64,000 nt of DNA, from positions 141,861 to 205,860 of the forward strand of contig CAZWIT010000001.1 of assembly GCA_964633905.1 (NCBI GenBank), read 5' to 3'. Source of the stretch: an uncultured Gammaproteobacteria bacterium. GTDB lineage: Bacteria; Patescibacteriota; Patescibacteriia; UBA1558; GWA2-36-10. Positions 24,404 to 63,085 of the stretch are shown here, one piece after another. Within the stretch, counting starts at the first letter, position 1; the number at the start of each line of letters is the position of its first letter. The notes beneath the pieces were generated by a model that was not told where the DNA came from, did no database searches, and saw nothing but the letters and a program-made list of their open reading frames with translations. The translations under genes were made by a program, and so were the position numbers.

Positions 24404-24432
24404 TTGACAATTTATCTATTATATGCTATAAT
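24404..24432 (+). promoter_or_regulatory. consensus sigma70-type promoter TTGACA-N17-TATAAT
   Basis: TTGACA at 24404-24409, 17-nt spacer, TATAAT at 24427-24432. Confidence 0.5.
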
Positions 24433-24477
24433 AATAAGTATCAGTAGTGTTCTTCCCTCTAAACGAAGGAGCTAGTC

Positions 24478-24684
24478 ATGTCGCGTTTGACTTATGTCCT
24501 GACCGAGCCCTTGTGCCTGGTTTGCCGGACGGCGGCTCTGACCATCTACACACGCGAGGCCTACGCCCAGGAGATGGAGCGGTGTAGCTCGCTTGAGCGT
24601 CGCCGTTTCGAAGAGAGCATGGTCGGCGGCACCATCATTGGCCTGCTGGCCATCGCGGTCCATACCATCGTCAAGACTTTCTAG
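24478..24684 (+). CDS. small protein (68 aa) with C-terminal TM helix, GC-rich (about 58%)
   Basis: AAGGAG SD 7 nt upstream of ATG; own promoter and terminator; composition strongly deviates from flanks. Confidence 0.4.
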   Translation: MSRLTYVLTEPLCLVCRTAALTIYTREAYAQEMERCSSLERRRFEESMVGGTIIGLLAIAVHTIVKTF

Positions 24685-24714
24685 TTGCCCACGTGGCAAC
24701 AGAAGTCGCAAGTA

Positions 24715-24763
24715 AGCCCCGGGTTTTTCCGCAAGGAGATCCTGGGGCTGATTTTTTTATTTT
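24715..24763 (+). terminator. intrinsic terminator
   Basis: agccccgggtttttccgcaaggagatcctggggct hairpin followed by TTTTTTTATTTT. Confidence 0.6.
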
Positions 24764-24866
24764 AAAATTGCTTAGGCAAGTTGACAAATATTATTTTATC
24801 AGGCTAAATTAATTAGCTCTTTTCGTTTTAATTTGATCAATCAATTCCCCGCCAAAGGAGAAGCTT

Positions 24867-25157
24867 GTGCAACAAGCAGAAATCAAGAGTCTCTTAATTG
24901 AGTTAGCTCAAGATGACTGTTCTTTTGCGCGTCATCAAGAAGTTTCTCAGTTGTTTTATGCTGCTGCTCAGCGTCGGCCAGCACCTGACTCTACTACTGA
25001 TGATACTAGTATGTTATTTACAGCCATGCTCAATAAACTTTTGCGGATTGTGAATAAGAAACATTTGCCGGGCTTATTTCCGGTTTTTGCTATGTTGTGT
25101 GGCGATCGTTATGATTTTATTGGTTTTGCTGAAATTGACTGGGATTTGATGTCTTAG
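24867..25157 (+). CDS. hypothetical small protein (96 aa, GTG start)
   Basis: AAGGAGA SD before GTG; upstream TTGACA-N17-CTAAAT promoter (24781-24809); followed by terminator. Confidence 0.4.
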   Translation: MQQAEIKSLLIELAQDDCSFARHQEVSQLFYAAAQRRPAPDSTTDDTSMLFTAMLNKLLRIVNKKHLPGLFPVFAMLCGDRYDFIGFAEIDWDLMS

Positions 25158-25183
25158 TTTGATATTGATTGAATCAATTTTTG

Positions 25184-25215
25184 AACCGCTCTCTCGCAGG
25201 GCGGTTTTTATTTTG
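25184..25215 (+). terminator. intrinsic terminator
   Basis: aaccgctctctcgcagggcggtt hairpin plus T-run. Confidence 0.5.
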
Positions 25216-25305
25216 TGAATAAACAACCATTGACTTTGGGTGTAACTATAGTATACTTATATGTTTTAGGTCCAAGTTCTTCACATCAAACTTTAAGGGG
25301 GCTCA

Positions 25306-25938
25306 ATGAACGCTGCCTTTTTTGGAGTTTTAATGCTTCTTTTAATTGCGGTAGTATTTTACGTATGGGTTTCTAATATAAATTATAAAACTCGTAAAGA
25401 ACAAGATAGGCTGGAAGCACTTGATGCTATTGAGAGAGTAGAGACAGAGAGTCCTGAATATATATTGACTCATAAGCCAAGTCCTTATCAGATTGAAGTT
25501 ATTCTTAGTTCTAATCCAAATTACCACATTGAACAGATGGCTATTAAAGCAGCTTTGGCTAGCAGAAATATTATTTCTTTATCTTTAGTAGATAAGTATG
25601 CGCCACGGTATAGCGAGCAAGCAAGTCGTGCTCACTGGGATATTATATTTGCTAAAGCCAATACTATTGCTGAATGCGAGCAGTTACTTAGAGAACATAG
25701 GCATGATTGTAGTGATTGGTGTTTAGCTTGGAAAGCTAAACTTGAACAGAAAATTAAGCAAGCTAGACAGCTTGAGAAGAAAGTAGCTTTCTTGAATCAA
25801 GCGAGGGCAGCTGGTATAGAAGTGTGTTCTATTTGTGACACAGTAGATCCCACAAGATGCGATGATTGTAACTGTTGTATTTCAGGCAAAAGAGGTTGTT
25901 CGCATAGCTTTGGTGGGCTATGTGAGGACTGTAAATAG
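25306..25938 (+). CDS. membrane-anchored protein with C-terminal 8-Cys domain (paralog A)
   Basis: 210 aa; AAGGGGG SD; N-terminal TM; C-terminus CSICDTVDPTRCDDCNCCISGKRGCSHSFGGLCEDCK. Confidence 0.6.
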   Translation: MNAAFFGVLMLLLIAVVFYVWVSNINYKTRKEQDRLEALDAIERVETESPEYILTHKPSPYQIEVILSSNPNYHIEQMAIKAALASRNIISLSLVDKYAPRYSEQASRAHWDIIFAKANTIAECEQLLREHRHDCSDWCLAWKAKLEQKIKQARQLEKKVAFLNQARAAGIEVCSICDTVDPTRCDDCNCCISGKRGCSHSFGGLCEDCK

Positions 25939-25957
25939 ATGCTCCTATAAGTGTTTG

Positions 25958-26030
25958 AGCCTCACAGCTTTGTGTAAGCATTGTGGGGCTTTTTTATTTT
26001 AAAAAAAGCCCTACGATAGGTAGGGCTTAA
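25958..26030. terminator. back-to-back terminators between convergent paralogs
   Basis: gcctcaca...tgtggggcttttttatttt (plus strand) and aaaaaaagccctacgataggtagggctt (minus strand). Confidence 0.5.
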
Positions 26031-26070
26031 GATTTTTAGCTTATAATTTTGTTTACTAAATTTTATGAAA

Positions 26071-26769
26071 TTAATCATAATAAAGATAGTAACAACTATA
26101 ACATTCCCCATCATAATCAGAACAGTCGCCATTACCAGAAATACAAGTATGATCACTGCATTTACATCTTCTAGGTTCAATGGTCTTACATTTCCAACAA
26201 ACATCTTGTCCAGCGGCTTCAGCTTGTTCTAGTTGGGCTTGACGTATTGCATTGGCAGCTTGTCTTTCGCGCGCTTCAATAATTGGTAAAGCTCTAGCTT
26301 CCAATTTAGGCTTCCAAGTGTGCCACCATTTACCATGGCTAGATGTAGTATCATTATCCCAAACACTATTTTTCCTTAGAGTAACTTCACACTCTTCATC
26401 TGGGATTTTGCTCATTATTATATCCATGATAGCAAAGTAAGCGCGTTCCTTATCTATTGTGCTAATAAAATTAAACCTATCAAGTACAGATATAGTATAA
26501 ATGCTACCGCTTTTTAGTGCAGCGTCAATAGCCATTTGTCTGATTTTTGGATCATGATTTTCATTTAAAATATTTGCTATTTGTCCATAACCAGGATCAT
26601 GACTAAGGATATATTCAGGGGTTTGGCGCCTAGCTCTTTCTTCATCTCTGGCTTTTTGTTCAGCTTCGATTTTACGATATTCTGCATCTTTTTTTTCATT
26701 TTCTTCTAAATTTTGTATAAAAAATATACATAACAATACTACTATCAAAATGATTCCTAGGCCTATCAT
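26071..26769 (-). CDS. membrane-anchored protein with C-terminal 8-Cys domain (paralog B)
   Basis: 232 aa; AAAGGAGG SD; shares PEYIL(S/T)H, QMAI.AAL and the CxxCxT.xPxRCxxC...CISGxxxCS Cys pattern with paralog A. Confidence 0.6.
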   Translation of the reverse strand: MIGLGIILIVVLLCIFFIQNLEENEKKDAEYRKIEAEQKARDEERARRQTPEYILSHDPGYGQIANILNENHDPKIRQMAIDAALKSGSIYTISVLDRFNFISTIDKERAYFAIMDIIMSKIPDEECEVTLRKNSVWDNDTTSSHGKWWHTWKPKLEARALPIIEARERQAANAIRQAQLEQAEAAGQDVCWKCKTIEPRRCKCSDHTCISGNGDCSDYDGECYSCYYLYYD

Positions 26770-26825
26770 CTCATCCTCCTTTTGTGGGGTTTTTAGGTTG
26801 TCTAAGAACTAAGAGTGAACAATTT

Positions 26826-26854
26826 AATATATGCTAAAAAAGCTCAGGTGTCAA
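26826..26854 (-). promoter_or_regulatory. sigma70-like promoter for paralog B (TTGACA-N17-TATATT on minus strand)
   Basis: Read from reverse complement of 26826-26854. Confidence 0.4.
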
Positions 26855-26907
26855 TTGATATTATGGTTATTAATTTAAAAACCGCCTTAAGTTTGGCGGT
26901 TTTTATT

Positions 26908-27954
26908 TTATAAATTTTCTTGATAAAATTTAATACTGCGCTCAAAAGCTTTATTAACATTATTACTAATATTATGATTATCGCCAAGGTATTCGTAATA
27001 ATCAAGCGTTTTATTATTTTGTTCTAAAGCTTGTTTTAAGCTGCGCGATAATTCAACTGGCACACTGTCATCTTTAGTGCCGTGTTGTAATTCAATTTTA
27101 GCACTAATGTCAGTTAAATAATTATAAGGATCAAGTTGGCTCCAAAATTTAATATTTTTACTAGGCAGATCATTGGCTATGATAAGCGGACTACTGGTAG
27201 CGTTATGTAAAAAATCAATTTTGGCATTGTAGGTTTCAAACATATCTTGATAACTACCAACTACGCCAGCCCAGAGCGAAGCCGCTTTTATATCTTTGGA
27301 TATGACTAGTATTCGTAAACCAATTTCACCGCCATTAGAGTGGCCCCAGTAGCCCAGGCGTTCAGGATTGACATCTTTGTATTGTTTTAGATAATTAATA
27401 GCATAAAGAGTATCAACTACATATTTTTCTGAATAATGAGCCATTACTGCTTCGCCTTCAGATTTACCATGACCGCGTAAGTCAGGTTTAAAAGTAATAA
27501 AGCCAGCGCGAGCAAGTTTAGCTTGGTAAGTAGGATAATTACCAGTAGTAGAATATTCTTTAGGCGGGATGTAGCCGTGAATAAAAATAATAGCTGGCCA
27601 ACCACCCGCAGGCATTTGTGCTAGAGGCACAGTTAGGAGACCATATATTTTTAAACCTTCTGATAAATAAGAAACAATATATTGAGAGTAGTTTGTACCA
27701 TTATTTAACTTTTGTTCAATCACAAAATCTCCTCCTGGATAAGAGTCAGCGCGTAAATTAGCAATAGCCATAGGGTGATCAGTTTTATTATCAAGAATAG
27801 TCTTATTTTGATCACTTGTTAAATTACTGACAAACGATTTGATGAAATTGTCTGCTTGCTTGTTTGATTTTTTGTTTGTTAAATTAAGACTAATGATTAT
27901 TAGTAGCGCAGTTAGCATTAATAACAAACTTATATATAATTTATTTATTTTCAT
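26908..27954 (-). CDS. secreted alpha/beta-hydrolase (S9 peptidase / dienelactone-hydrolase-like)
   Basis: 348 aa; signal anchor; nucleophile elbow GHSNGG. Confidence 0.65.
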   Translation of the reverse strand: MKINKLYISLLLMLTALLIIISLNLTNKKSNKQADNFIKSFVSNLTSDQNKTILDNKTDHPMAIANLRADSYPGGDFVIEQKLNNGTNYSQYIVSYLSEGLKIYGLLTVPLAQMPAGGWPAIIFIHGYIPPKEYSTTGNYPTYQAKLARAGFITFKPDLRGHGKSEGEAVMAHYSEKYVVDTLYAINYLKQYKDVNPERLGYWGHSNGGEIGLRILVISKDIKAASLWAGVVGSYQDMFETYNAKIDFLHNATSSPLIIANDLPSKNIKFWSQLDPYNYLTDISAKIELQHGTKDDSVPVELSRSLKQALEQNNKTLDYYEYLGDNHNISNNVNKAFERSIKFYQENL

Positions 27955-28094
27955 ATTTTTATAAATTTAAATGCTTAGAGCTTTATTAATTTTAGTTTAG
28001 CATAATTTTAAGATTAGAAAAAATTTTTTTAATTGGTTTGACTTTTAAAGTTTAAAATAGGATAATAAAGACAGTTTTTGTCTAGAAAAGCATT

Positions 28095-28637: not shown

Positions 28638-28655
28638 AGTTAAAAGAAATAAAAT

Positions 28656-30233
28656 ATGTCTGAAGAACAAAAAAGATTATTAGAAAAACAGCTTTGGAAG
28701 GTTGCTGATGTTTTACGTGGCAAAATGCATGCCGATGAATATAAAAACTATATTCTCGGTTTTATTTTTTATAAATATCTTTCTGAAAAATTAGAGCTTT
28801 TTGTAAACGATAAATTATTAGCTAGTGAAAAATTTATTTTTTCTGAGATTAAAGAAGATACTAAGCTTGGTAAAGAAAATCTCAGGCATATCGAAATTGC
28901 TTGTACTGATCAGCTAGGATTTTTTCTAAGACCAACGGAGCTTTTTTCTTATTTAGTTAAAAAGGGTAAAGGTGAGATTAAAGGCGAAGAATCTTTTATT
29001 TTGGAAGATCTTAAAAATGTTTTAAACGATATAGAAAAGACTTCGGATGGTACAGCTAGCGAGGATGATTTTAAGGGTTTATTTGATGATATGGACCTTA
29101 CTTCTTCTAAACTCGGTTCTCGTGAAAGTGATAAAAATGAAGTTGTAGTTGAGATACTCAGTTTACTCAGTGGTATCGATTTTAAACTTAAGGATTCAAA
29201 AAGCGATTTACTTGGCGATGCTTATGAATATTTGATCGGTGAATTTGCGGCTGGTGCTGGTAAAAAGGGTGGTGAATTTTATACACCTGCTCAAGTATCA
29301 CGCTTACTAGCTCAAATTGTTTCTGTAGATAAAAAACGTATCAAATCAGTCTATGATGCCGCTTGTGGTTCTGGTTCGCTTTTGTTGCGTCTAGGTGAGT
29401 TTACTGATGTAGTCAATTATTATGGGCAAGAGCTCAATCCAACTACTTATAACTTGGCTCGTATGAATATGATCTTGCATGGCGTGCACTTTGATCATTT
29501 TTCCATCCGCCAAGGTGATACACTCCGAGAGGATATGCACCCTGATTTGAAGGCTGAAGCTATAGTCGCTAATCCACCATTTGCTGCTCAATGGAAAGGA
29601 GATACGGATCCAGCTTTAGCGCATGATGATCGTTTTTCTCAATATGGTCGGTTAGCGCCAAAGAGCGCGGCTGATTATGCTTTTGTTACTCACATGCTTT
29701 ATCATCTGGCTGACAATGGTACTATGGCAATTGTCTTACCTCATGGTGCACTTTTCCGTTCTGGTGCTGAGGGACATATCCGTAAGTATATTATAGAAAA
29801 ACAAAATTATCTTGATGCGGTGATAGGATTGCCGGCCAATTTGTTTTATGGCACTTCTATTCCAGCTACTGTTTTAGTGTTTAAGAAATGCCGTCGTGAG
29901 GATGAAGATATTTTATTTATTGATGCTTCCAAAGAATTTGAAAAAGTAGGTAATCAAAATAATCTTAGTGACGAAAATATTGCCAAGATTTTTGATACTT
30001 ATAAAAATCGTAAAGAAATAGCCAAATATTCCCACAAAGCTTCTTTAGCTGAAATCAAGGAAAATGAATATAATCTCAATATTCCACGTTATGTAGATAC
30101 TTTTGAAGAAGAGGAATTGGTAGACATTGGTCAAGTTGCAAAAGATTTGAAAGATTTATCTAAGCAAGAAGTAGATTTGCAAAATAAAATAGCAGAATTT
30201 TGTGAAGAATTAAAAATAGATAAGCCTTTTTAG
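28656..30233 (+). CDS. hsdM: type I restriction-modification system, methyltransferase subunit
   Basis: 525 aa; HsdM N-terminal domain, motif I DAACGSGS, motif IV NPPF. Confidence 0.9.
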   Translation: MSEEQKRLLEKQLWKVADVLRGKMHADEYKNYILGFIFYKYLSEKLELFVNDKLLASEKFIFSEIKEDTKLGKENLRHIEIACTDQLGFFLRPTELFSYLVKKGKGEIKGEESFILEDLKNVLNDIEKTSDGTASEDDFKGLFDDMDLTSSKLGSRESDKNEVVVEILSLLSGIDFKLKDSKSDLLGDAYEYLIGEFAAGAGKKGGEFYTPAQVSRLLAQIVSVDKKRIKSVYDAACGSGSLLLRLGEFTDVVNYYGQELNPTTYNLARMNMILHGVHFDHFSIRQGDTLREDMHPDLKAEAIVANPPFAAQWKGDTDPALAHDDRFSQYGRLAPKSAADYAFVTHMLYHLADNGTMAIVLPHGALFRSGAEGHIRKYIIEKQNYLDAVIGLPANLFYGTSIPATVLVFKKCRREDEDILFIDASKEFEKVGNQNNLSDENIAKIFDTYKNRKEIAKYSHKASLAEIKENEYNLNIPRYVDTFEEEELVDIGQVAKDLKDLSKQEVDLQNKIAEFCEELKIDKPF

Positions 30234-30238
30234 CTACT

Positions 30239-30868
30239 ATGTCTTATATATTTTTGGATGAAAGTGGAGATTTAGGGTTTAAGCCGACGTCAAGCAAGTG
30301 GTTTATTTTTACTATTGTTTTGGCTAGCCACCACAAAAAGATAGAAAAAGTTATTAAAAATATTAGAAAGAGCTTAAAAAAGAAATATAAAATAAAAGAA
30401 TTACACGCTTATCATGCAGATCCGCTTACTAGGCATAGGATGCTAAAAAATTTAGCCGAGCTGGAAGATTTGAAAGTACTTTGTGTTATTTTGAATAAGA
30501 AAAAAGTTTATACTGATTTACAGAATCAAAAAAATTATTTATACAATTATACGGCTAATATTTTGTTAGATCGTTTGCATAATAAAAAATTAATTAAAAC
30601 AGATGAGCCAATAAATTTGTATATTGATAAAAAAGATACTAACAAATTTATTAGGAATAATTTTCAAAAATATTTAGAAGATAATCTTTTAAAAAGAGGT
30701 AATAGTGGTAAGATTGAAATAAAAATAAAAGCCTCGCATACAGAAAAGTGTTTGCAAGCAGTTGATTTTGTAAGCTGGGCTATTTTTAGAAAATACGAAA
30801 AAAACGATTATGAATATTATAATGATATCAAAGATAAGATTATAGAAGAAAATTTATTGTTTTCTTAA
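30239..30868 (+). CDS. DUF3800-family protein embedded in R-M operon
   Basis: 209 aa; N-terminus MSYIFLDESGDLGF characteristic of DUF3800. Confidence 0.55.
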   Translation: MSYIFLDESGDLGFKPTSSKWFIFTIVLASHHKKIEKVIKNIRKSLKKKYKIKELHAYHADPLTRHRMLKNLAELEDLKVLCVILNKKKVYTDLQNQKNYLYNYTANILLDRLHNKKLIKTDEPINLYIDKKDTNKFIRNNFQKYLEDNLLKRGNSGKIEIKIKASHTEKCLQAVDFVSWAIFRKYEKNDYEYYNDIKDKIIEENLLFS

Positions 30869-31045
30869 AAAGAAAACCCCCTGCTTTGACGAGACGCCTT
30901 ACGGTATCTCAACGCAGGAGGAATTACATCTATTTATAATATACATAAATTGTTTAATCTTGTCAACATAAGATTATAAGATTATAAATTTATAACTAAT
31001 ATAAGATAAAATTAATATATAGTCTGGGAATAATAGTGTTAAAAT

Positions 31046-32221
31046 ATGTTAAATAAGCATAATAAAATAAATATTAAAAACAACGTCCCCAAACTCCGTT
31101 TTCCGGGTTTTTCTGGTGAGTGGGGTGAGAAAAGATTAGGCGATTGTTTAGATTATGAACAACCAACAAATTATATTGTTCATAGTACAGAATATAATGA
31201 TTCTTATAAAACTCCCGTATTGACAGCTGGTAAAAGCTTCATTCTTGGCTACACAAATGAAGAGGATGATATTTTTGATAATTTACCAGTTATTATATTT
31301 GATGATTTTACAACTGCCTCTCAATTTGTTGATTTTCCATTTAAGGTTAAATCTTCAGCTATGAAAATTTTAAAACCAAAAGATAGATTGGACATTAGAT
31401 TTATTTTTGGTGCAATGAGTCAAATAAAATATAAAATTGGTGGTCATGGTCGACATTGGATTTCAAAATATTCAAATATAAAATTTTTTATACCAAATAA
31501 TAACAAAGAACAACAGAAAATCGCTGAATTTTTAGGGTCAATTGATGAATGGATAGAAAATCTAAAAAATCAAAAAAAATCTTTTGAAGCTTATAAAAAA
31601 GGCTTGATGCAAAAAATATTCTCACAAGAAATAAGATTTAAAGATGATAGCGGCAAGGATTTTCCGAAGTGGGAGGAAAAGAGGTTGGGAGATACAGGGG
31701 AAGTAATTACTGGCTCTACACCGCCAACAGCTAATAAAGAGTATTATAATGGTACTTTTCCATGGATAACACCTACGGATATAAATCATTCTAAAAATAT
31801 TTATTCGTCAGCAAAACTTTTGACGAAAAAGGGGTTAAGTGTAGCTCGTTTAATCCCTAAAAATAGTTTATTAGTCACCTGTATTGCGAGTATTGGTAAA
31901 AATGTAATTTTAAGATTAGATGGAAGTTGTAATCAGCAGATTAATGCTATTTATCCTAATAAAAATAATGACGTAGATTTTTTATATTATCTTGTAGAGA
32001 AGAATAAAAATATTTTAATAAGGTTCGCTGGTGCTGGTGGGATGCAAATGTTAAACAAGAAGGATTTTTCTAATTTAACTTTTAAAATTCCCACTATTGG
32101 TGAACAACAAAAAATTGCTGAATTTTTAGGCTCAGTTGATAATTTAATAGAGTCAAAAGAGAAACAGGTTAGTCAGGCTGAACAATGGAAAAAGGGGTTG
32201 ATGCAGAGATTGTTTGTATAA
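31046..32221 (+). CDS. hsdS: type I R-M specificity subunit
   Basis: 391 aa; two target-recognition domains each followed by conserved QQKIAEFLGS...L.. KKGLMQ repeat. Confidence 0.85.
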   Translation: MLNKHNKINIKNNVPKLRFPGFSGEWGEKRLGDCLDYEQPTNYIVHSTEYNDSYKTPVLTAGKSFILGYTNEEDDIFDNLPVIIFDDFTTASQFVDFPFKVKSSAMKILKPKDRLDIRFIFGAMSQIKYKIGGHGRHWISKYSNIKFFIPNNNKEQQKIAEFLGSIDEWIENLKNQKKSFEAYKKGLMQKIFSQEIRFKDDSGKDFPKWEEKRLGDTGEVITGSTPPTANKEYYNGTFPWITPTDINHSKNIYSSAKLLTKKGLSVARLIPKNSLLVTCIASIGKNVILRLDGSCNQQINAIYPNKNNDVDFLYYLVEKNKNILIRFAGAGGMQMLNKKDFSNLTFKIPTIGEQQKIAEFLGSVDNLIESKEKQVSQAEQWKKGLMQRLFV

Positions 32222-32227
32222 AAAATT

Positions 32228-33055
32228 ATGACAGAAGAAATTAGACAAAATGAAACTGGTATTTTATTTGATGGATCAAAATTTGAGATAACTCATGACA
32301 TCTTGCCTATTTTTTATTTTTTGAAAGGGATAGAAATCGAGATTGAAAATATTTTGGGGTTTGACAATAAATTAGAAAAATTGAGATCTGGTTATTTAGA
32401 AATTTTTAATTTTACTAAATTTCTTGCAGAAAAATTAAAAGAAAACAACATTAATTTTGAGTACAATTTGAATCACAATTTATTTTCGTTAATGGATGAG
32501 TTTCATTTTAATTCACCGGACAGATCACAGATGATATCTTTATTTGCTAGTTTAGAAGTATTATATTTTTTATATATTTCATATGAGCAAGAGACTAGTA
32601 ATGACGATATTTTAAGAAAAATAGCGATGAGTGAAAAAAAATTTTATAGTAGATTTATCAGGACTTTTCTTTTCACAGATCAAAATCAATATTACTTAGA
32701 AAATAAAGAAAGATTGAATAAGATAGACCCGATAAAGATAAGGAAATTAAGAAACTCATTAACACATTTTTTTTCTTTAGCACCAGGAGGATTATCTATA
32801 GCTCCGAGCAATGAGTATGAAAAAGCAAGGCGTTTAGAAAAAAAATTACAACAGGATAAAAAAGGTTATATAGTTTTTATTTCAACAAAAGATTTGTTTG
32901 AATTAATTAAATTTGCAAACATTTTAATGTTTAAAAAATGGAGCGATGATTTTTTGTTGTCTCCAAATGATTTTCGTAGAAAAATTCAGTATGTTATTAC
33001 TGTAGTTAGGGATAATGGTGCAGTTATTATAATGAATAAAGATTTAAAAATTTAG
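32228..33055 (+). CDS. hypothetical protein, possible HEPN/Abi-like (Rx4H motif RNSLTH) between hsdS and hsdR
   Basis: 275 aa; RKLRNSLTHF matches Rx4-6H HEPN signature; position typical of embedded defence genes. Confidence 0.4.
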   Translation: MTEEIRQNETGILFDGSKFEITHDILPIFYFLKGIEIEIENILGFDNKLEKLRSGYLEIFNFTKFLAEKLKENNINFEYNLNHNLFSLMDEFHFNSPDRSQMISLFASLEVLYFLYISYEQETSNDDILRKIAMSEKKFYSRFIRTFLFTDQNQYYLENKERLNKIDPIKIRKLRNSLTHFFSLAPGGLSIAPSNEYEKARRLEKKLQQDKKGYIVFISTKDLFELIKFANILMFKKWSDDFLLSPNDFRRKIQYVITVVRDNGAVIIMNKDLKI

Positions 33056-33058
33056 TTT

Positions 33059-35860
33059 ATGACACATCAATCAGAACAACAGCTAGAAAAAACATTAATC
33101 GAACAGCTTAAGCGCTTAGGCTTTGCTTCTATTATTTTAGTAGACGAAACTGATTTGATTAGAAATTTACATCAGCAATTAGAGAAATTTAATCAAACTA
33201 AATTTTCAGCTCAAGAGTTTATAAAAATTTTAAATCATATCAATAAAGGTGATCGTTTTTATAAGGCCAAAACTTTACGTGATAGATTTGCTTTGAAACG
33301 GGATGATGATAGTACTTTTTTTGTGCGATTTTTCAATATGGATTATTGGTGTAAAAATGAATATCAAGTTGCTCAACAAATTGTTCAGACTGGTCGCTAT
33401 AAAAATCGTTATGATGTAACTTTGCTAGTCAATGGCCTGCCTTTGGTGCAGGTTGAGCTCAAGCGTCGTGGTATGGAGCTCAAAGAGGCCTTTAATCAAA
33501 TTCAGCGTTATCACAAGCATTCCTTTGCGGGGACTTTTTTTGACTATATTCAGATATTTGTCATCTCTAACGGAGTCAATACAAAATATTTTGCCAACAA
33601 TCCCAAACAAACTTTTGAACAAACATTTTATTGGACCGATATCAATAATAGAAAAATCACCAAGTTAGATGAATTCGCGGAAGTATTTTTGGAAAAATGC
33701 GCAGTATCAGAAATGATTGCTGAATACATAGTATTGGCCGAAGCGACTAAAATTCCCATGGTACTGCGCCCATACCAGTATTATGCAGTCAAAGCTATAG
33801 CTGAGCAAGTGCGTAAATCTGATAGTAATAGCTATATTTGGCATACTACTGGCTCAGGCAAGACACTGACCTCATATAAAACCAGTCAAATATTATCGCG
33901 TATACCAGAAGTAAAAAAAGTACTTTTTGTAGTAGATAGAAAAGATTTGGATATTCAGACCACCAAAGAGTTTAATTCATTTTCCGAAGGATCTGTAGAT
34001 GGCACCAACAATACCAGAAGTTTAGTCAATCAACTCCAAGACAAAAATAGAAAATTGATTGTTACTACCATCCAAAAATTGGATATTGCTATTGGCCGAG
34101 AAATATATTTAAAGAAATTTGAGTATTTGGCTGACGAAAAAGTAGTGATTATTTTTGATGAATGTCATCGTAGTCAATTTGGTCAGACACATGCACGTAT
34201 TAAGGGATTTTTTAGAAAAGCACAGTTATTTGGTTTTACTGGCACACCTATTTTTGCCGATAATAATATTGGTGGGGTAACGACTATGGATGTTTTTGGT
34301 AAATGCCTACATAAGTATGTCATCACCAATGCTATCGCTGATAACAATGTTTTGGGATTTGCTGTTGAATATGTCGGTAAATACAAACAAAAAGATCTAG
34401 ATACTTTGGATGCTGATATTTTTGCCGATGCTATGGTAGAGGGTATTGATACCAAAGAAGTATTAGAAAGCGATGGTCGTTTGCATAAAATTACGGATTA
34501 TATTTTGGCTGATTGGAAGCGGAAAACTAAACAAGGTAAATTCAATGCTTTATTTGCGGTTTCATCTATTGAAGTTTTAAAAAAATATTATACTTTACTC
34601 AAAGCTAAGAAAGCAGATGATTTTTCTATTGCTACTATTTTTACCTATCAAGTAAATGAAAACGAAAGCTCGGATATGCTTGATGTCGATGTTTTTGCTG
34701 ATGAGGGAGCGGCTATCAATAAGCACTCCAGGGACTTTTTAGAGGAATGTATTAAAGACTATAATAAAAAATATCTGACTAATTTTTCTACTGATCGTTT
34801 TTATGATTATTATCGGGATTTACAAAAAAGGATAAAGAACAAAGAAGTTGATCTGACTTTGGTAGTGAATATGTTTTTGACTGGTTTTGACAGTCCTAGA
34901 TTAAATACACTCTACGTAGATAAAAATTTACGCTATCATGGACTTGTTCAGGCTTATTCCAGAACTAATAGGCTATTAAATTCGGATAAACCTCATGGCA
35001 ATATTGTTTCTTTTAGGAATTTAAAAGAAGCTACTGATAGGGCTTTAGCATTGTTTGGCGATGAAAATGCCAAAGAGGTAGTATTTAAGAAGCCGTACGA
35101 AGCACAGAAAAAAGAATTTGATGAAAAGCTATCGGAATTGCGAGATAAAGTGCCGACTGTTGCATCAGTGGACGATCTTCAAGGTGAAGAAAAAAAGGCG
35201 GAATTTGTTAAATCTTTCCGTGATTTATTACGTATTAAATCATCTTTGGAGACCTTTGCTGAATTTTCTTTTAAGGATCTCGGCATAACAGAGCAAGAAT
35301 TTTATGATTATCAGAGCAAATATTTGGATGTTTATGAGGATCGTAAAAATAATAATAGTGATGTTGAATCAATTTTAGATCAGATTGATTTTGAGATAGA
35401 TCTTACTGTACGAGATATTATTAATTTTGATTATATAATTCAACTTATTGCTGGTTTAAAAAATATTAGTTCAGCTGTAGTGCGCAAAAAGAAGACGGAT
35501 GAGATTTTGCAATTATTTGATAGAGATGCTCAAATGCGTAAAAAGAAAGATTTGATCCAGAAATTTATTGAAAAAAATTTACCAAAAATTAGTAAGTCAG
35601 ATGATGTGGAAAAAGCTTTTAGTGAATTTTGGACAAGTGAGCGTTCTGCTAGCTTGAAAAAGATCGCTCAAAAAGAAAAAATTCCTGTAGAGAAATTTGA
35701 ATATCTAATTGGAGAATATTTATATAGTCAGAAATTACCAAATGGACAGGATATTATTGATTTATTACCCGGAGGAATTCCTAGAATTAGAGATAGACAG
35801 GGGATTATCGACAGAATTAAGAGCGCTTTACAAAATATAGTTGATATATTTGAGTGGTAG
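33059..35860 (+). CDS. hsdR: type I restriction enzyme R subunit (SF2 helicase-nuclease)
   Basis: 933 aa; HsdR N-terminal nuclease, Walker A TGSGKT, DECH box (IFDECHRSQ). Confidence 0.9.
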   Translation: MTHQSEQQLEKTLIEQLKRLGFASIILVDETDLIRNLHQQLEKFNQTKFSAQEFIKILNHINKGDRFYKAKTLRDRFALKRDDDSTFFVRFFNMDYWCKNEYQVAQQIVQTGRYKNRYDVTLLVNGLPLVQVELKRRGMELKEAFNQIQRYHKHSFAGTFFDYIQIFVISNGVNTKYFANNPKQTFEQTFYWTDINNRKITKLDEFAEVFLEKCAVSEMIAEYIVLAEATKIPMVLRPYQYYAVKAIAEQVRKSDSNSYIWHTTGSGKTLTSYKTSQILSRIPEVKKVLFVVDRKDLDIQTTKEFNSFSEGSVDGTNNTRSLVNQLQDKNRKLIVTTIQKLDIAIGREIYLKKFEYLADEKVVIIFDECHRSQFGQTHARIKGFFRKAQLFGFTGTPIFADNNIGGVTTMDVFGKCLHKYVITNAIADNNVLGFAVEYVGKYKQKDLDTLDADIFADAMVEGIDTKEVLESDGRLHKITDYILADWKRKTKQGKFNALFAVSSIEVLKKYYTLLKAKKADDFSIATIFTYQVNENESSDMLDVDVFADEGAAINKHSRDFLEECIKDYNKKYLTNFSTDRFYDYYRDLQKRIKNKEVDLTLVVNMFLTGFDSPRLNTLYVDKNLRYHGLVQAYSRTNRLLNSDKPHGNIVSFRNLKEATDRALALFGDENAKEVVFKKPYEAQKKEFDEKLSELRDKVPTVASVDDLQGEEKKAEFVKSFRDLLRIKSSLETFAEFSFKDLGITEQEFYDYQSKYLDVYEDRKNNNSDVESILDQIDFEIDLTVRDIINFDYIIQLIAGLKNISSAVVRKKKTDEILQLFDRDAQMRKKKDLIQKFIEKNLPKISKSDDVEKAFSEFWTSERSASLKKIAQKEKIPVEKFEYLIGEYLYSQKLPNGQDIIDLLPGGIPRIRDRQGIIDRIKSALQNIVDIFEW

Positions 35861-49248: not shown

Positions 49249-49334
49249 TTAATTTTGCTTGCACCGTAAAATAAGTTGTGTAGTAATATTTTACGGTGTG
49301 GATAACTTAGGCTTGACCAAGCTAATAGATGTGA

Positions 49335-49547
49335 TATCATATATATGAAGACTAAGAGTCGAAATTGATTTGATAGGAAAAGTATGATCGTTGGCGAACG
49401 ATTTTCTGCAGCTTAAAGTTTAAGCAATAGAAATTCGTTCACCACGTTATCTCTTTTCCCCAATCAAACATATTTCTAAGACACTTAGTCTTCTTCCTTT
49501 TATATAAGTTTATTAAAAATCGCCACAATGGCGATTTTTTATTTTAG
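49335..49547 (+). ncRNA. candidate rod-shaped small RNA (long imperfect hairpin) ending in a bidirectional terminator
   Basis: TTGACC-N16-TATCAT at 49303-49330; 5' gaagactaagagtcgaaattgatttgatagg pairs imperfectly with 3' ccaatcaaac...cttagtcttc; terminator aaaaatcgccacaatggcgatttttt. Confidence 0.25.
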
Positions 49548-54164: not shown

Positions 54165-54193
54165 TTGACATTTTATCATTTTTTTGTTATAGT
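54165..54193 (+). promoter_or_regulatory. consensus promoter TTGACA-N17-TATAGT driving element R1
   Basis: TTGACA 54165-54170, TATAGT 54188-54193. Confidence 0.5.
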
Positions 54194-54199
54194 CCTATA

Positions 54200-54550
54200 T
54201 CAGTACATTAAATCGGAGGGCTCCCTATGGGACCATGGAATAAAGGGCAGCCTTCTGCTCAATATGTCCTGGCTCTAATGAGCCCTCCTGCAAGCGCGGC
54301 CTAGAGAAGCATATCGCTTTTCGGCCGCAAGAGGCGACGCATCGTCGCCTGTGGCACTCTGCCACCGCTTCTTCGGTAAGCGAGAGACTGAAGCGTATAG
54401 CACCCCGTAGGAGAAGTTCCTGGTGAGGATTACCAGGACTGACCGCGTGCGGTGAGGTAGCCAACGATAAGGGCCGAAGGTGGGGACATGACTAAGGTTG
54501 AAGTAAGGACTAACACTTACTAGACTAAAAGTTTCTCCCCACTTTTTTAT
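54200..54550 (+). ncRNA. unclassified GC-rich structured RNA R1 (about 350 nt)
   Basis: At least 7 perfect hairpins (for example GGCGACGcatCGTCGCC, GTGGCActcTGCCAC, CCTGGTgaggattACCAGG); long-range GGAGGGCTC/GAGCCCTCC pairing; promoter plus terminal GGGGA...TCCCC-TTTTTT; GC far above flanks. Confidence 0.45.
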
Positions 54551-54575
54551 TTTGTTTAAAAATATGGTAAAATAT

Positions 54576-57282: not shown

Positions 57283-57299
57283 AAATTAATAAATTTTTT

Positions 57300-58572: not shown

Positions 58573-58654
58573 CTTCTTGCTCCTATGCTTAGTGAAAAAG
58601 TACTAATGACCATCATAATTTAATCAGGATTTTTTTACTTGGTCAAATTTTTTT

Positions 58655-59085
58655 CAAAAAGAAAAAGCCTCACCAATGGTAAGGCTTTCCGGGCTGGCTT
58701 ATACCTGTGTGGGACCATGTTGTCATAGTCCACAAAAAATTACACAAGTTGGGGAGCCCGTTCTGCGCTAGCGCGTCTGTACCCCGTAGGACGCTCTAGT
58801 TCTGAGGTCTGACCTCAGAAGTGGTGGAGGTTGCCAGGATAAGTCCTGTGTAAGCTGCAGTTTGCAGGTAGCGTTCAACGCTTGTGGCGGAACGACCAGT
58901 CCCTACGAACCAGCGGCTGCTAGCCAAGTTAACTCGAGGCCTTCGAGTCACTTGAGATACCTTTGTTTTGGGTATCCGCAATGTCCAGGTTAGCGCTAAC
59001 CTGAATATCGCAACAAGCAGTTGTCCACAGAGCTTATTAAGCCCCAGCAACCCCCGTCTATTCGATGAACTTTTACGATTTTGTA
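58655..59085. ncRNA. unclassified GC-rich structured RNA R2 (about 400 nt), homologous to R1; strand unresolved
   Basis: Shares TGGGACCATG, ACCCCGTAGGA, GTGGTGGAGG/GGTGAGG and GCCA..GATAAG with R1 in plus orientation; the intervening hairpin covaries. Yet promoter TTGACA-N18-TAGAAT and terminator are on the minus strand. Confidence 0.4.
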
Positions 59086-59192
59086 TTCTAGCATATAATA
59101 AAAAATTTGTCAAGGGTATGGTTATGAGTTTATTTTTAGGCTTGAAATATATAGTTTTTTTAGGTATCATTAAATCATGATTTTTTAATTTT

Positions 59193-60482: not shown

Positions 60483-60495
60483 GTTTGGCCTTGTT

Positions 60496-60571
60496 GCCAC
60501 CCTAGCTCAGTTGGTAGAGCAACGGTATCGTAAACCGTGGGTCGTCGGTTCAATTCCGACGGGTGGCTCCA
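60496..60571 (+). tRNA. tRNA-Thr (anticodon CGT)
   Basis: Acceptor GCCACCC/GGGTGGC, D-arm AGCTCAGTTGGTAGAGC, anticodon loop ATCGTAA, T-arm GTCGGTTCAATTCCGAC, CCA encoded. Confidence 0.85.
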
Positions 60572-60585
60572 TTATTTAATAAATT

Positions 60586-60882
60586 ATGACTTACGAGAAA
60601 TTTTTACAAACACCAGAGACTAAAGACGCAATAGAAAGTAAGTTTTTGATCTGGCAAGATTTGATAAAAGATGCAGATGTTAGCGAGGAAACTAAACAAG
60701 AATTTATTGAAGCTTTACTTAAAATCAAAAATTGGCCAGAGTCTTATAGTAATTTAGAAGATGCAATTTATGGCATAGTTGGTTATTTGATCAATGTTTA
60801 TAAAAAAGATCCTAATCAGGCAGAAGCCAAAGCTTTGTTTGAAAATATTAGAGATGATCTTTGGCCTTTGGTTAGGGGCTAG
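60586..60882 (+). CDS. hypothetical protein
   Basis: 98-aa ORF. Confidence 0.45.
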   Translation: MTYEKFLQTPETKDAIESKFLIWQDLIKDADVSEETKQEFIEALLKIKNWPESYSNLEDAIYGIVGYLINVYKKDPNQAEAKALFENIRDDLWPLVRG

Positions 60883-60915
60883 CCTAAGTTTTAATTTTAG
60901 CTATATAATATAAAT

Positions 60916-62328
60916 ATGAATAGAATAAAAACAATCGAAACTGCAAATAAAGTTGGGGAAACAGTTTTACTCAAAGGTTGGGTAAATGTTCGTCGCAATA
61001 TGGGCAAGATCGCTTTTTTGGATTTACGTGATCGCTGGGGAATTGTGCAAGTGGTGGCAGTGCCAGCGGAACTTGATGAAGCTTCGCAAGCAATCTTAAA
61101 AGATATTAGGCCAGAATTTGTTTTAGCAATTACTGGATTGGTGCAAGCACGGGGAGCTAAACAAATTAATGTTGAAATGCCAACTGGTAAAGTAGAGATT
61201 TTAGCTAAACAAATCCAGATTTTAGCTACAGCTGAAACTCCACCATTTGAAATTGATAACGAAGAGCGACAAGCTAATGAAGAATTACGTTTAAAATATC
61301 GCTATTTAGATTTGCGCCATGAACGTATGACCAAAAATATAGTAATGCGTGATAAAGTAATGGCTTACTTAGGAAATTACCTTAGACAGCATGATTTTGT
61401 GTCAGTACAAACTCCAATATTATCCAAATCAACTCCTGAAGGAGCACGTGATTATTTAGTACCATCGCGCTTGCATCCAGGTAAATTTTTTGCTTTACCA
61501 CAAGCTCCACAACAATATAAACAGCTTTTAATGGTGGCTGGTATTGATCGTTATTTCCAAATTGCGCCTTGTTTTCGTGATGAAGATGCGCGTGCTGATC
61601 GAAGTCCGGGAGAATTTTATCAACTTGATATGGAAATGTCTTTTATTAAACAAGAAGATATTTTGGATTTAGTTGAGGATATGATGACTAAAATGGTACA
61701 AGAGCTTTTTCCGGAAAAGCATTTTACCCAAACTCCTTGGCCTCGTTTAAATTATGAAGAAGTGATGAAAAAATATAATTCTGATAAACCAGATTTACGT
61801 AAAGACAAAAATGATCCTAATGAACTTGCTTTTGCTTGGGTAATTAATTTTCCTTTATTTATGCCTCAAACTGACGAGGATAGATTTGTAGGGGCTGGTG
61901 ATACTTGGGGGCCAGCTCATAATATGTTTACTGCTCCTAAAGAAGAAGACATTGCTTTACTTGATACAGATCCAGGCAAAGTAAGATCTTATCAACACGA
62001 TATGGTTTTAAACGGTTTTGAAGTTGGCGGTGGGGCAGTGCGCATTCATGATATGAAGATTCAGGAAAAAGTTTGGGATTTGATTGGTTTTAAACCAGAA
62101 CAAAAAGAACAATTTAAGCATTATTTTGAAGCTTTTAAATATGGCGTACCGCCACACGGCGGAATTGCTCCTGGTTTAGATCGTTTACTAATGGTGCTGT
62201 TAAAAGAAAAAAATTTAAGAGAGGTAACAGCTTTTCCACTTACTTCTGATGGACGTGATCCAATGATGGAGTCTCCTTCAGAAGTTTCTAAAGATCAATT
62301 AGCAGAATTAAAGATAAAAACTACATAA
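60916..62328 (+). CDS. aspS: aspartyl-tRNA synthetase, short form lacking the bacterial GAD insertion
   Basis: 470 aa; QIAPCFRDEDARADRSPGEFYQLDME motif 2, GGGAVRIHD, GIAPGLDRLLM motif 3. Confidence 0.85.
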   Translation: MNRIKTIETANKVGETVLLKGWVNVRRNMGKIAFLDLRDRWGIVQVVAVPAELDEASQAILKDIRPEFVLAITGLVQARGAKQINVEMPTGKVEILAKQIQILATAETPPFEIDNEERQANEELRLKYRYLDLRHERMTKNIVMRDKVMAYLGNYLRQHDFVSVQTPILSKSTPEGARDYLVPSRLHPGKFFALPQAPQQYKQLLMVAGIDRYFQIAPCFRDEDARADRSPGEFYQLDMEMSFIKQEDILDLVEDMMTKMVQELFPEKHFTQTPWPRLNYEEVMKKYNSDKPDLRKDKNDPNELAFAWVINFPLFMPQTDEDRFVGAGDTWGPAHNMFTAPKEEDIALLDTDPGKVRSYQHDMVLNGFEVGGGAVRIHDMKIQEKVWDLIGFKPEQKEQFKHYFEAFKYGVPPHGGIAPGLDRLLMVLLKEKNLREVTAFPLTSDGRDPMMESPSEVSKDQLAELKIKTT

Positions 62329-62339
62329 TTTTTCACTGT

Positions 62340-62475
62340 ACTTACATATATTGGCATCGTGCCTGACTTGTTTTGTTGGTGTCTAACGGGCTCATAACCC
62401 TTGACCCTCCAAGGATGTGGCAAGCAGGCCGATGGAGCCCCATGCATGGCACATGGGGCTTCTTTATTTCATATA
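62340..62475 (+). other. GC-rich hairpin cluster R3 downstream of aspS (GGGCTC...GAGCCC long-range pair plus terminator-like gagccccatgcatggcacatggggcttc-TTTATTT)
   Basis: Direct reading. Confidence 0.3.
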
Positions 62476-62504
62476 TTGACATAATAGTGTATTTCTGATA
62501 TAAA
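62476..62504 (+). promoter_or_regulatory. consensus promoter TTGACA-N17-TATAAA
   Basis: TTGACA 62476-62481, TATAAA 62499-62504; leader contains perfect hairpin aacaacaaacaTGCtgtttgttgtt. Confidence 0.5.
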
Positions 62505-62621
62505 AATATATTGTTCTTCACAATTTTTTACCAACAACAAACATGCTGTTTGTTGTTAAACCTGGACAAGTTGAGAAAGGGTGGTGTTCTCGTGTTGTTT
62601 GAAGAAAACAAAAGGTTTGCA

Positions 62622-62984
62622 ATGTCCGACTTTATTGTGGTGCTTGTGATTATTGGTATTTTGGCAGCTATTGCTATTCCGCATCAAATTGCTAAACAAA
62701 ATCGTGAAAAAGTAGAATATAATATTAATTATTTGCAGATCAAGATAAACGATTATTATCGGGATAAGGGAATGTATCCGTATTCTGTTATTGAAATGGT
62801 TAGGTATGGTTATTTGGATAAAAAAGGTTTTGAAAACCCATATAGTAATACTTGGCAGCAGCCAATCGATGGCCAAGCTGTAAGTATTGGCCAAATTGGT
62901 TATGAATTTCTTGATAGCAATGATATCAAATATCGTATTACGACTCGTATTGGTAATGACTTGATTACTAGGATTGGTAAATAA
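62622..62984 (+). CDS. type IV pilin-like (pseudopilin-like) protein with atypical prepilin leader
   Basis: N-terminal helix FIVVLVIIGILAAIAIP matches pilin alpha1-N; the Gly(-1) is replaced (KRFAMSD versus canonical KGFTLIE); an alternative GTG start at 62592 is possible. Confidence 0.5.
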   Translation: MSDFIVVLVIIGILAAIAIPHQIAKQNREKVEYNINYLQIKINDYYRDKGMYPYSVIEMVRYGYLDKKGFENPYSNTWQQPIDGQAVSIGQIGYEFLDSNDIKYRITTRIGNDLITRIGK

Positions 62985-63056
62985 ATTTTAATGACTCGTC
63001 GAAAAGCCCAATGGGGTAATGGCGGGTCATTTTTTTTGACAGGTTTTTATATAGTA

Positions 63057-63085
63057 TTGACAGTTTTATTATTTTAGTTTATAAT
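63057..63085 (+). promoter_or_regulatory. perfect consensus promoter TTGACA-N17-TATAAT
   Basis: TTGACA 63057-63062, TATAAT 63080-63085. Confidence 0.55.

Follow-up and report, generated by a model that had tools for sequence, protein, structure and literature searches.

Phage morons are reportedly autonomous modules of promoter, gene and terminator, as recognised in the lambdoid phage work of Hendrix and colleagues. In AT-rich bacteria, GC-rich intergenic regions (GC-IGRs) flag genes for non-coding RNAs, and the GC-IGR/DIMPL approach defines its RNA classes from many members and from covariation (PMC6429828, PMC8632094, PMC8723152, PMC11109978). The boxA/Nus leaders of rRNA operons, suhB and CRISPR arrays combine near-consensus promoters with untranslated structured RNAs (PMC5725501, PMC7665894, PMC8632103). 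Here, near-consensus sigma-70-type promoters and five GC-rich units (R0 to R4) are described in a 64-kb window, the term used below for the whole stretch of contig CAZWIT010000001.1 that was analysed; all positions count from its first letter. As in the GC-IGR/DIMPL studies, R1 to R4 are long GC-rich intergenic islands with high predicted fold stability in an AT-rich genome, whereas here there are one to three relatives per RNA and none is in Rfam 15. The strong promoters probably mark short autonomous units, namely the putative structured RNAs R1 to R3 and the R0 messenger RNA (mRNA), with turnover of such units in their intergenic slots.

The source genome is that of an AT-rich, ultra-small uncultured bacterium of the Patescibacteria or Candidate Phyla Radiation (CPR), near Komeilibacteria; the asparaginyl-tRNA synthetase (AsnRS) of the window is 79-83% identical to those of Candidatus Komeilibacteria and Patescibacteria metagenome-assembled genomes (MAGs). 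DNA identical to the window was also found in independent assemblies (L081, L082), so that its features are not assembly artefacts. The organism is present in the Logan assemblies SRR13355620 and DRR784968, and relatives of it in SRR13355621 and SRR23702522. The window (GC 33.9%) includes genes for enolase, phosphoglycerate mutase, pyruvate kinase, TypA, a type I restriction-modification operon, an [FeFe]-hydrogenase pair, AsnRS, aspartyl-tRNA synthetase (AspRS) and ScpA, and about 15% of it (~9.3 kb) is intergenic. Its two transfer RNAs (tRNAs) are 58-62% GC, and structured RNAs therefore stand out by composition in this 34%-GC genome.

Promoters were scored as matches out of 12 to the TTGACA and TATAAT hexamers, with a spacer of 17 ± 1 bp. 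The chance level for boxes of at least 11/12 was obtained from 100 first-order Markov simulations of the window. GC islands were called with a 120-nt sliding window, and fold z-scores compare predicted stability with that of shuffled controls. RNA families were searched in Rfam 15 at gathering thresholds and at permissive E-values (to E ≤ 10 on isolated regions of 450-1050 nt).

The sequence-only reading had listed eight promoter boxes. All eight are present (two at 12/12, four at 11/12 and two at 10/12), and the two positions that it gave on the minus strand (26826 and 59085) are the ends of -10 hexamers. The boxes are as follows:

24404 to 24432, plus strand: R0 promoter, TTGACA-17-TATAAT, TG-extended, 12/12
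63057 to 63085, plus strand: R3 promoter, TTGACA-17-TATAAT, 12/12
54165 to 54193, plus strand: R1 promoter, TTGACA-17-TATAGT, TG-extended, 11/12
59113 to 59085, minus strand: R2 promoter, TTGACA-17-TAGAAT, TG-extended, 11/12
26854 to 26826, minus strand: promoter of an open reading frame (ORF) of 232 amino acids (aa), TTGACA-17-TATATT, 11/12
62476 to 62504, plus strand: promoter of a pilin-like ORF, TTGACA-17-TATAAA, 11/12
24781 to 24810, plus strand: promoter of a 96-aa ORF, TTGACA-18-TAAATT, 10/12
25230 to 25257, plus strand: promoter of a 210-aa ORF, TTGACT-16-TATACT, 10/12

Boxes of at least 11/12 occur 11 times in the window, against 3.2 ± 1.65 in the simulations (maximum 10), an excess of about 3.4-fold, and exact 12/12 boxes occur twice against 0.08 expected. 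Ten of the 11 are intergenic and correctly oriented. That the pattern is a by-product of AT-rich composition, with GC islands adjacent to boxes by coincidence, agrees with the modest surplus of boxes at 9/12 or better over shuffled sequence (99 vs 72.7; 100 vs 85.9) and with the one 11/12 box that is intragenic (27368). Set against the excess of the best boxes, their placement and the presence of the R0 promoter in L097 and of the R2 promoter in L096 and L083, this explanation is very improbable; moreover, all four GC-rich units R0 to R3 have a perfect TTGACA and a 17-bp spacer, as expected of sigma-70-type promoters. We take the near-consensus boxes to be genuine promoters of this type, serving short monocistronic units with their own terminators, and we infer from them both transcription and transcript abundance.

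Four stretches of more than 50% GC are long (24424-24766, 54185-54545, 58658-59059 and 63092-63318); these four, the longest of the window, coincide with R0 to R3, and a shorter stretch at 62330-62482 is R4. A few bases ahead of each long stretch lies a box whose -35 is perfect and whose spacer is 17 bp, and the stretch closes at a hairpin followed by a U run. The bodies of R0 to R3 are 49-53% GC, compared with 34% for the genome. The units read as follows:

24439 to 24758, plus strand: R0 transcript, GC 0.53; GTTCT leader motif at 24449-24453, 3' hairpin, terminator stem at 24715-24749 and U run
24478 to 24684, plus strand: R0 ORF, 68 aa, hydrophobic C-terminal helix; AAGGAG 8 nt before the ATG
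54200 to 54548, plus strand: R1 RNA, ~350 nt, a string of hairpins, GC 0.52, minimum free energy -145 kcal/mol; long-range terminator stem at 54480-54542 and U run
58655 to 59078, minus strand: R2 RNA, ~420 nt, structured; GTTCA leader motif at 59070-59066, terminator at 58690-58662
59055 to 58823, minus strand: R2 module A, 13-bp closing stem and multi-hairpin junction (five or six hairpins), ending in ACCA
58822 to 58691, minus strand: R2 module B, following module A
63092 to 63306, plus strand: R3 RNA, ~215 nt; GTTCT motif at 63100-63104, three hairpins (two with CCUCC loops), terminator at 63277-63301
62345 to 62470, plus strand: R4 RNA, ~125 nt, ~80-nt hairpin and terminator at 62434-62462; downstream of AspRS, no strong promoter

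The terminators of R2, R3 and R4 were found by a scanner; the stems of R0 and R1, with a T run behind each, were recognised by eye, their loops being longer than the scanner allows. Fold z-scores were -3.0 for R0, -5.55 for R1, -7.3 for R2, -4.8 and -6.0 for R3 and -4.3 for R4. No conserved ORF with a Shine-Dalgarno sequence was found in R1 to R4. Rfam matched the two tRNAs and nothing more on the whole window, three sub-regions and four related loci, and ARAGORN found no transfer-messenger RNA (tmRNA) and no extra tRNA in the window. For R1 to R4, searching the isolated regions at E ≤ 10 still gave no Rfam 15 family, and none of the four was recognised by ARAGORN. With nhmmer, the window RNAs gave no match in 80 AsnRS-anchored genome loci; among close relatives they matched only the same strain, L096 (R2), L097 (R0) and L083 (weakly, R4). 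From predicted folds and these searches, R1 to R4 look like non-coding, unclassified structured RNAs. A GC island at 16340-16651 of L001 was considered as a further RNA and rejected; it lies within a coding gene.

Imperfect direct repeats of 16-27 nt flank R2, R3 and R4, and the right-hand copy falls each time within the promoter of the next gene:

58615 to 58640 and 59166 to 59191: repeats flanking R2, 26 nt, 81%
63080 to 63106 and 63330 to 63356: repeats flanking R3, 27 nt, 70%
62342 to 62357 and 62467 to 62482: repeats flanking R4, 16 nt, 88%

As target-site duplications, insertion scars or promoter duplications these repeats were rejected: a rough estimate puts them within what AT-rich promoter DNA yields by chance.

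R0 is coding, as read from its ORF and homologs: it is the predicted mRNA of a conserved 68-aa membrane micro-protein. Two homologs were found among 1.84 billion representative proteins, P0121 (69% identity, 68 aa) and P0122 (51%, 71 aa); the proteins share a C-terminal LLAIAVHTIV motif, and with only these two cluster representatives besides R0 the family is very rare. The R0 ortholog of L097 (799-1005, 69%) shares the 12/12 promoter of R0; its leader is similar, its ORF is also GC-rich, and the loop of its terminator is conserved. Downstream of it lie more single-gene units, each with a TTGACA box and a terminator, including an ortholog of the 96-aa ORF.

R0 reaches a GC content at third codon positions (GC3) of 0.80 in the window and its L097 ortholog one of 0.75, whereas enolase, TypA, AsnRS and hydrogenase lie at 0.21-0.27. 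The two orthologs differ by 17 synonymous codons and have kept this GC3, so the GC-richness is maintained and not freshly imported. From the GC-rich synonymous sites we infer selection at the RNA level, for structure or stability. A basic Cys-rich 61-aa ORF of L091 and L095 (L091 6955-7140) has a GC3 of 0.87, and its frame is kept through ~10 synonymous and 11 non-synonymous codon changes between the two.

As in type I toxin-antitoxin systems, the R0 protein is small and hydrophobic and its mRNA is highly structured. It differs from the type I toxins in that its helix is C-terminal and in that, at 68 aa, it exceeds most of them in length. A 10/12 promoter-like box at 24787-24759 on the minus strand points into the 3' end of R0 and could yield an antisense RNA. 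Measured against a type I system, R0 thus offers the hydrophobic C-terminal helix and the 10/12 antisense box; no antisense terminator and no PADLOC match were found.

R2 carries ~170 nt and the terminator past module A, and module A alone folds with z = -5.8. Homologs were found in L096, whose AsnRS is 95% identical to that of the window, and in L083 (AsnRS 83% identical). Between the window and L096 all 97 of 97 consensus pairs are retained, with 15 one-sided and three two-sided changes; when the structure was predicted from one sequence only, 19 of the 31 substituted pairs were still paired. This conservation of predicted pairing between two sequences is supportive, not conclusive. In L083 the leader, the terminal helix and the ACCA are kept and the RNA ends there. 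The tail reads ACCA in the window and ACCC in L096, and the third pair of the helix is G:U in the window only and G:C in L083.

Elements that resemble tRNA occur in other RNAs, such as tmRNA, the terminus of 4.5S RNA and the thrS operator, which mimics an anticodon arm. R2 module A shares with the ends of tmRNA and 4.5S RNA a long helix followed by ACCA or ACCC; unlike tmRNA, R2 lacks D and T arms as well as a tag ORF. It was rejected as a tmRNA on the missing T arm and on the candidate tag frame, which in L096 is broken by a 2-nt indel and an early UAA; ARAGORN and the Rfam tmRNA models were silent on R2.

R1 to R3 might nevertheless be divergent housekeeping RNAs (RNase P RNA, tmRNA, signal recognition particle (SRP) RNA, 6S RNA) that lie beyond the reach of Rfam and ARAGORN, in which case strong promoters would be expected. 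Their sizes fit loosely (R1 ~350, R2 ~235-420 and R3 ~215 nt), the terminal helix and ACCA/ACCC of R2 resemble the ends of tmRNA or 4.5S RNA, and divergent RNAs of Patescibacteria can escape standard models (PMC13011429). For R1 and R2 no Rfam RNase P model matched at E ≤ 10 on the isolated regions, and among the P4 strands sought by inspection (CR-I, GGAAAGUCC-like; CR-V, ACAGAANCCGGCUUA-like) no GAAAGUCC-like strand was found. No Rfam SRP model matched R2, R3 or R4; isolated AGCAGCC- and AAGCAGG-like strings occur there in the wrong structural context, and an SRP domain-IV motif with a GGAA loop was not found. None of these families was matched in the relatives either. R3 was also rejected as 6S RNA, with no Rfam 6S match and a predicted fold of three independent hairpins and a terminator in place of a 6S-type rod, which is prediction only and a weak exclusion. 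Furthermore, essential RNAs should be conserved, whereas relatives with 82-83% identical AsnRS have unalignable or different elements in the same slots, and four such RNAs within 10 kb would be a coincidence. Given these results, a set of divergent housekeeping RNAs is distinctly unlikely.

Group I intron-interrupted tRNA genes have been reported in Patescibacteria (PMC13011429). R2 and R4 were rejected as such genes, since neither shows D or T arms or matches a group I intron.

R1 lies directly upstream of the nuoF-like/[FeFe]-hydrogenase operon. It was rejected as a coding unit: a 26-codon ORF behind GGAGGG is not kept in the relatives with an RNA in this slot, and the GGAGGG lies within a predicted stem. 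R3 lies upstream of scpA. Like the C-rich-loop small RNAs (sRNAs) of the RsaE/RoxS type, it presents CCUCC in two predicted loops, in a genome with strong AAGGAGG Shine-Dalgarno sequences; it has no sequence or covariance match to RsaE or to any Rfam sRNA.

R1 and R3, and R4 with them, might be cis-acting leaders (riboswitches or attenuators) of the nuoF-like/hydrogenase, scpAB and pilin operons. Each is immediately followed by a gene in the same orientation, and its terminator could double as an attenuator; a structured RNA precedes the nuoF-like gene not only in the window but also in L083, L091 and L095, four genomes in all. A conserved extended -10 (ATATGGTAAAAT; TGGTAAAAT at ~54565) was observed between the terminator of the R1 slot and the nuoF-like operon (54555-54575), and occurs also in L091 and L095. 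The nuoF-like/hydrogenase operon therefore has a predicted promoter of its own past the terminator, and scpA likewise has one at 63307 (TTGGAA-17-TATAAT). The hydrogenase-slot RNA of the window does not appear to be of the same family as that of L083 and L091, and L088 has the same operon behind a gap of only 64 nt with no RNA in it. R2 faces away from AsnRS, and no Rfam riboswitch or leader matched. On all this evidence, regulation in cis is an improbable account of these RNAs.

In R4, the apical 17-nt core ACGGGCUCAUAACCCUU (62386-62402) is identical in L083 (~12985-13005), where the flanks diverge (nhmmer E = 0.013 for R4 against L083). The apical hairpin reads GGGCUCAUAACCC, which is the anticodon arm of bacterial initiator tRNA, as in E. 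coli tRNA-fMet. The hairpin may thus mimic that arm; unlike initiator tRNA, R4 lacks a cloverleaf, and it has no obvious regulatory target among aminoacyl-tRNA synthetase or initiation-factor genes.

The gene order hydrogenase, AsnRS, AspRS, ScpA is conserved in relatives, and their intergenic slots carry different GC-rich cassettes, each with a strong promoter. Upstream of the nuoF-like gene, the RNAs of L083, L091 and L095 form one family (nhmmer E = 1e-8; 22 compensatory pairs); a covariance model of their 5' domain gave no match in R1 of the window, and R1 is therefore not shown to belong to this family. In the slot upstream of AsnRS, the window, L096 and L083 carry R2, whereas L091 and L095 have the 61-aa ORF on the opposite strand, L085 two GC-rich units, L089 and L094 a tRNA, and L087 nothing. 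Between AspRS and ScpA there are zero, one or two unrelated RNAs. Unrelated cassettes in the same slots argue against one conserved functional set, and against universal housekeeping RNAs. In L085 (8547-9889; also in L086) the region upstream of AsnRS is a 1.3-kb GC-rich island with two minus-strand units behind 11/12 TTGACA promoters; one has a GTTC leader, one probably encodes a ~200-aa membrane protein, and the plus-strand ORFs called there look spurious.

Such variability would also be expected if the GC-rich units were moron-like cassettes from a GC-richer donor (phage, plasmid or host bacterium), with their composition as a relic. Their anatomy of sigma-70 promoter, short gene, intrinsic terminator and deviant composition between conserved genes is the classical layout, slot contents differ among close relatives (upstream of AsnRS; zero to two cassettes between AspRS and scpA), and the R0 family is very rare. 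As in morons, small genes of little-known function show modular anatomy, deviant GC and variable presence in syntenic slots. Unlike morons, the units lie in a bacterial chromosome with no phage genes nearby, several of the cargoes are non-coding RNA, and the anomaly is persistent and limited to the transcript: AT-rich sequence makes up the promoters, leaders and terminator tails, which also bear a lineage-specific motif. In addition, the GC3 of the two R0 orthologs has not decayed to the host value, and the direct repeats flanking R2, R3 and R4 are within chance for AT-rich DNA. R0 DNA had no match in phage or plasmid collections (R1 to R3 were not searched there), and the small proteins of the window had no significant PHROG or PADLOC match, save a weak pilin match. 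Taken as a test for moron cassettes, variable presence and modular deviant composition were thus observed, and a foreign donor and GC decay were not. Import as GC-rich cassettes is therefore rather unlikely, though less so than the other alternatives above.

The lineage-specific motif is a GTTC(T/A) element typically 13-16 nt past the -10, at about +7 to +12 of the transcript and on the sense strand only. It was counted behind the 38 boxes of at least 11/12 in the window and nine related loci. GTTC lies downstream of 14 of the 38 against a background of 5%, a count that orthologous copies inflate and that leaves about 11 independent units; it ranks first among the 256 possible 4-mers (p = 1.6e-9), as GTTCT does among the 5-mers. 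GTTC follows each of the four 12/12 boxes, boxes at exactly 10/12 are at background, and the reverse complement GAAC occurs at one of the 38 sites. After consensus promoters GTTC is not enriched in Bacillales (1/18) or in the other taxa tested, and the leader motif is therefore lineage-specific. Examples are as follows:

R0 leader: GTGTTCTTCCC
R2 leader: AAGTTCATCGAA
R3 leader: TTGTTCTATAA
leader of the 210-aa ORF: AAGTTCTTCACAT
leader of the 96-aa ORF: GCTCTTTTCG
leader of the 50454 unit: GTTCTTTTCC
leader of the pilin-like gene (62511-62523): TTGTTCTTCACAA

LexA (GAAC-N4-GTTC), Rex and CRP half-site readings of GTTC were rejected, as the motif has no inverted partner and is strand-specific.

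The boxA consensus of gamma-proteobacteria is GYTCTTTAANA (PMC5725501); boxA is known on non-coding transcripts such as CRISPR arrays, and its consensus drifts between phyla (PMC7665894). Its 5' half, GYTCTT, occurs at 7 of the 38 sites against a background of 1.9% (GTTCTTT in the 50454 unit; GCTCTTT in the 24781 unit and in the R1-slot RNA of L091; TTGTTCTTCACAA in the pilin leader), and the 3' half (TAANA) is poorly matched. As in boxA leaders, the early part of the transcript carries a U/C-rich element that is short, linear and strand-specific. Unlike those leaders, the units here are 0.2-0.7 kb long with intrinsic terminators, and the motif also precedes protein genes. Neither 16S primer sites nor an rRNA operon were found in the window or in any other locus analysed (99 sequences in all). 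GTTCW/GYTCTT may tentatively be regarded as a boxA-like NusB/NusE site or another element of the nascent RNA, the consensus compared being gamma-proteobacterial; boxA itself is a possible reading of the motif that we hold with considerable doubt.

The sequence-only reading had placed the strong boxes almost exclusively before small GC-rich genes and RNAs. This does not hold: the GC-rich units R0 to R3 lie behind only four of the eight boxes that it cited. The other four precede units of near-ordinary composition (the 96-aa ORF, GC 0.40; the 210-aa ORF, 0.38; the 232-aa ORF, 0.35; and the pilin-like gene). The housekeeping genes named as weakly promoted divide, pyk and typA reaching only 9/12 and eno 11/12. 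Several genes of ordinary composition also reach 10-11/12, and the strong boxes before other genes include the following:

17340 to 17367, plus strand: enolase promoter, TTGACC-16-TATAAT with TG, 11/12; enolase at 17401-18681
8931 to 8958, plus strand: promoter of an A2M-like gene encoding 1805 aa, 11/12
8660 to 8689, plus strand: promoter of an AT-rich 47-aa micro-ORF (8735-8878), 11/12

Across 41 transcription-unit starts, the best score was 12 for R0 and R3 and 11 for R1 and R2, with none for R4; the 27 protein genes had a median best score of 9-10, with four at 11 (one-sided Mann-Whitney p = 0.027, n = 5 vs 27). GC-rich cargo behind strong promoters is thus a trend and not an exclusive association. 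The class of highly expressed short transcripts proposed in the earlier reading survives in part: the strongest boxes do mark short autonomous units, probably highly expressed, and these include the structured RNAs R1 to R3 and the micro-protein mRNA R0 with its AAGGAG Shine-Dalgarno sequence. A class of GC-rich micro-proteins was not borne out, since most micro-proteins behind the cited boxes are not GC-rich, and R4 has no strong promoter. The functional link that had been suggested gains some substance, at the level of transcription or RNA handling, from the common GTTCW leader motif; no evidence was found that the RNAs and proteins cooperate, and the slots of relatives carry unrelated cassettes.

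In the account that we favour, of strong promoters marking short autonomous units with turnover in their slots, the GC-richness of R1 to R4 would result from selection for stable secondary structure, as with the tRNAs of the window. The strong promoters of R1 to R3 would reflect the high output typical of stable RNAs. The synonymous sites of R0 would be held GC-rich by selection on the RNA (structure or stability). Many strongly promoted units share the GTTCW/GYTCTT element, which may act on the nascent RNA. The units form no fixed set, as the intergenic slots of relatives carry different cassettes.

Several observations weigh against this account. The contrast in promoter score between GC-rich units and genes is modest; R1 has no GTTC motif and R4 no strong promoter. 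Covariation support is thin, at two or three sequences per family: the R2 covariation score was reached by 61 of 500 column shuffles, and 12 of the 31 substituted R2 pairs break in the single-sequence test. The leader motif fits only the first 6-7 positions of E. coli boxA, and it is hard to see what a unit of 200-400 nt closed by an intrinsic terminator would gain from antitermination. Which promoters are used, where the RNAs end and how abundant they are is all read from the DNA sequence.

A more far-reaching interpretation joins the consensus promoter and the boxA-like leader into an "rRNA-style" module of this Komeilibacteria-like CPR clade, through which Nus-modified RNA polymerase would transcribe, and help to fold, a changing GC-rich cargo of orphan structured RNAs and of micro-protein mRNAs with synonymous sites kept GC-rich for the sake of the RNA. 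R2, with its acceptor helix and ACCA, and R4, with its initiator-tRNA anticodon arm, would then be the two RNAs with tRNA-like parts. The cassettes would be exchanged at fixed intergenic hot spots, and translation, in the symbiont or in its host, may be what they act on. Taken as a whole we consider this interpretation unlikely.

Further short units of the window are as follows:

24781 to 25157, plus strand: unit of the 96-aa ORF; GCTCT motif at 24816-24820, ORF at 24867-25157, terminator; ordinary composition, same layout in the L097 ortholog
25230 to 25938, plus strand: unit of the 210-aa ORF; GTTCT motif at 25276-25280, membrane-anchored Cys-rich ORF at 25306-25938
26071 to 26854, minus strand: unit of the 232-aa ORF; two GTTC leader motifs, ORF at 26769-26071
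62476 to 62984, plus strand: pilin-like unit; ORF ending at 62984, weak PHROG pilin match
20268 to 20520, minus strand: overlooked unit; 10/12 promoter at 20520-20492, GTTCA at 20483-20479, ~60-aa membrane micro-ORF, 49%-GC island

The 210-aa and 232-aa ORFs are convergent paralogs (34% identity, E = 9e-31) with an N-terminal anchor and Cys-rich C-termini, and no Pfam, PHROG or PADLOC family was found for them. More micro-ORFs (~38-80 aa, mostly hydrophobic) were seen at 8735-8878, 20268-20510 (minus strand), from 42419, from 50522 and from 17145, each preceded by an AAGGAGG-type Shine-Dalgarno sequence and equipped with a promoter and a terminator of its own. From such predictions the genome seems rich in unannotated micro-protein genes.

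At 49313-49545 lies an sRNA-like unit (~200 nt, 49345-49545) that is not GC-rich, with a TG-extended TTGACC-16-TATCAT box, U/C-rich stretches, a terminator at 49515-49539 and no ORF of more than 10 codons. In the type I restriction-modification operon (28656-35860; hsdM, hsdS, hsdR) a DUF3800 gene is inserted after hsdM. An 11/12 promoter at 30966-30938 on the minus strand leads into a hairpin RNA of ~60 nt with a U run (to 30869), which converges on the DUF3800 gene and matched no DUF3800 motif of Rfam. The A2M-like protein (9002-14419, 1805 aa) has a Hint/intein-like insert at about residues 1046-1178 (PT-HINT, Hom_end_hint, Intein_splicing).

For annotation, strong promoters in this genome flag short autonomous genes of whatever kind, and no special class. 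The CPR/Patescibacteria account for a large share of bacterial diversity, yet hardly any of their non-coding RNAs have been charted; from these 64 kb alone come four putative structured RNAs without an Rfam family and at least one conserved micro-protein family. The signature of perfect promoter, GC island and terminator can be scanned for across thousands of MAGs. Micro-ORFs with a GC3 of 0.75-0.87 in genomes of 34-42% GC offer a clean case for selection on mRNA sequence independent of the protein. Should the leader motif prove to be boxA, small RNAs and micro-protein genes of a reduced genome would join the targets of Nus-factor control.

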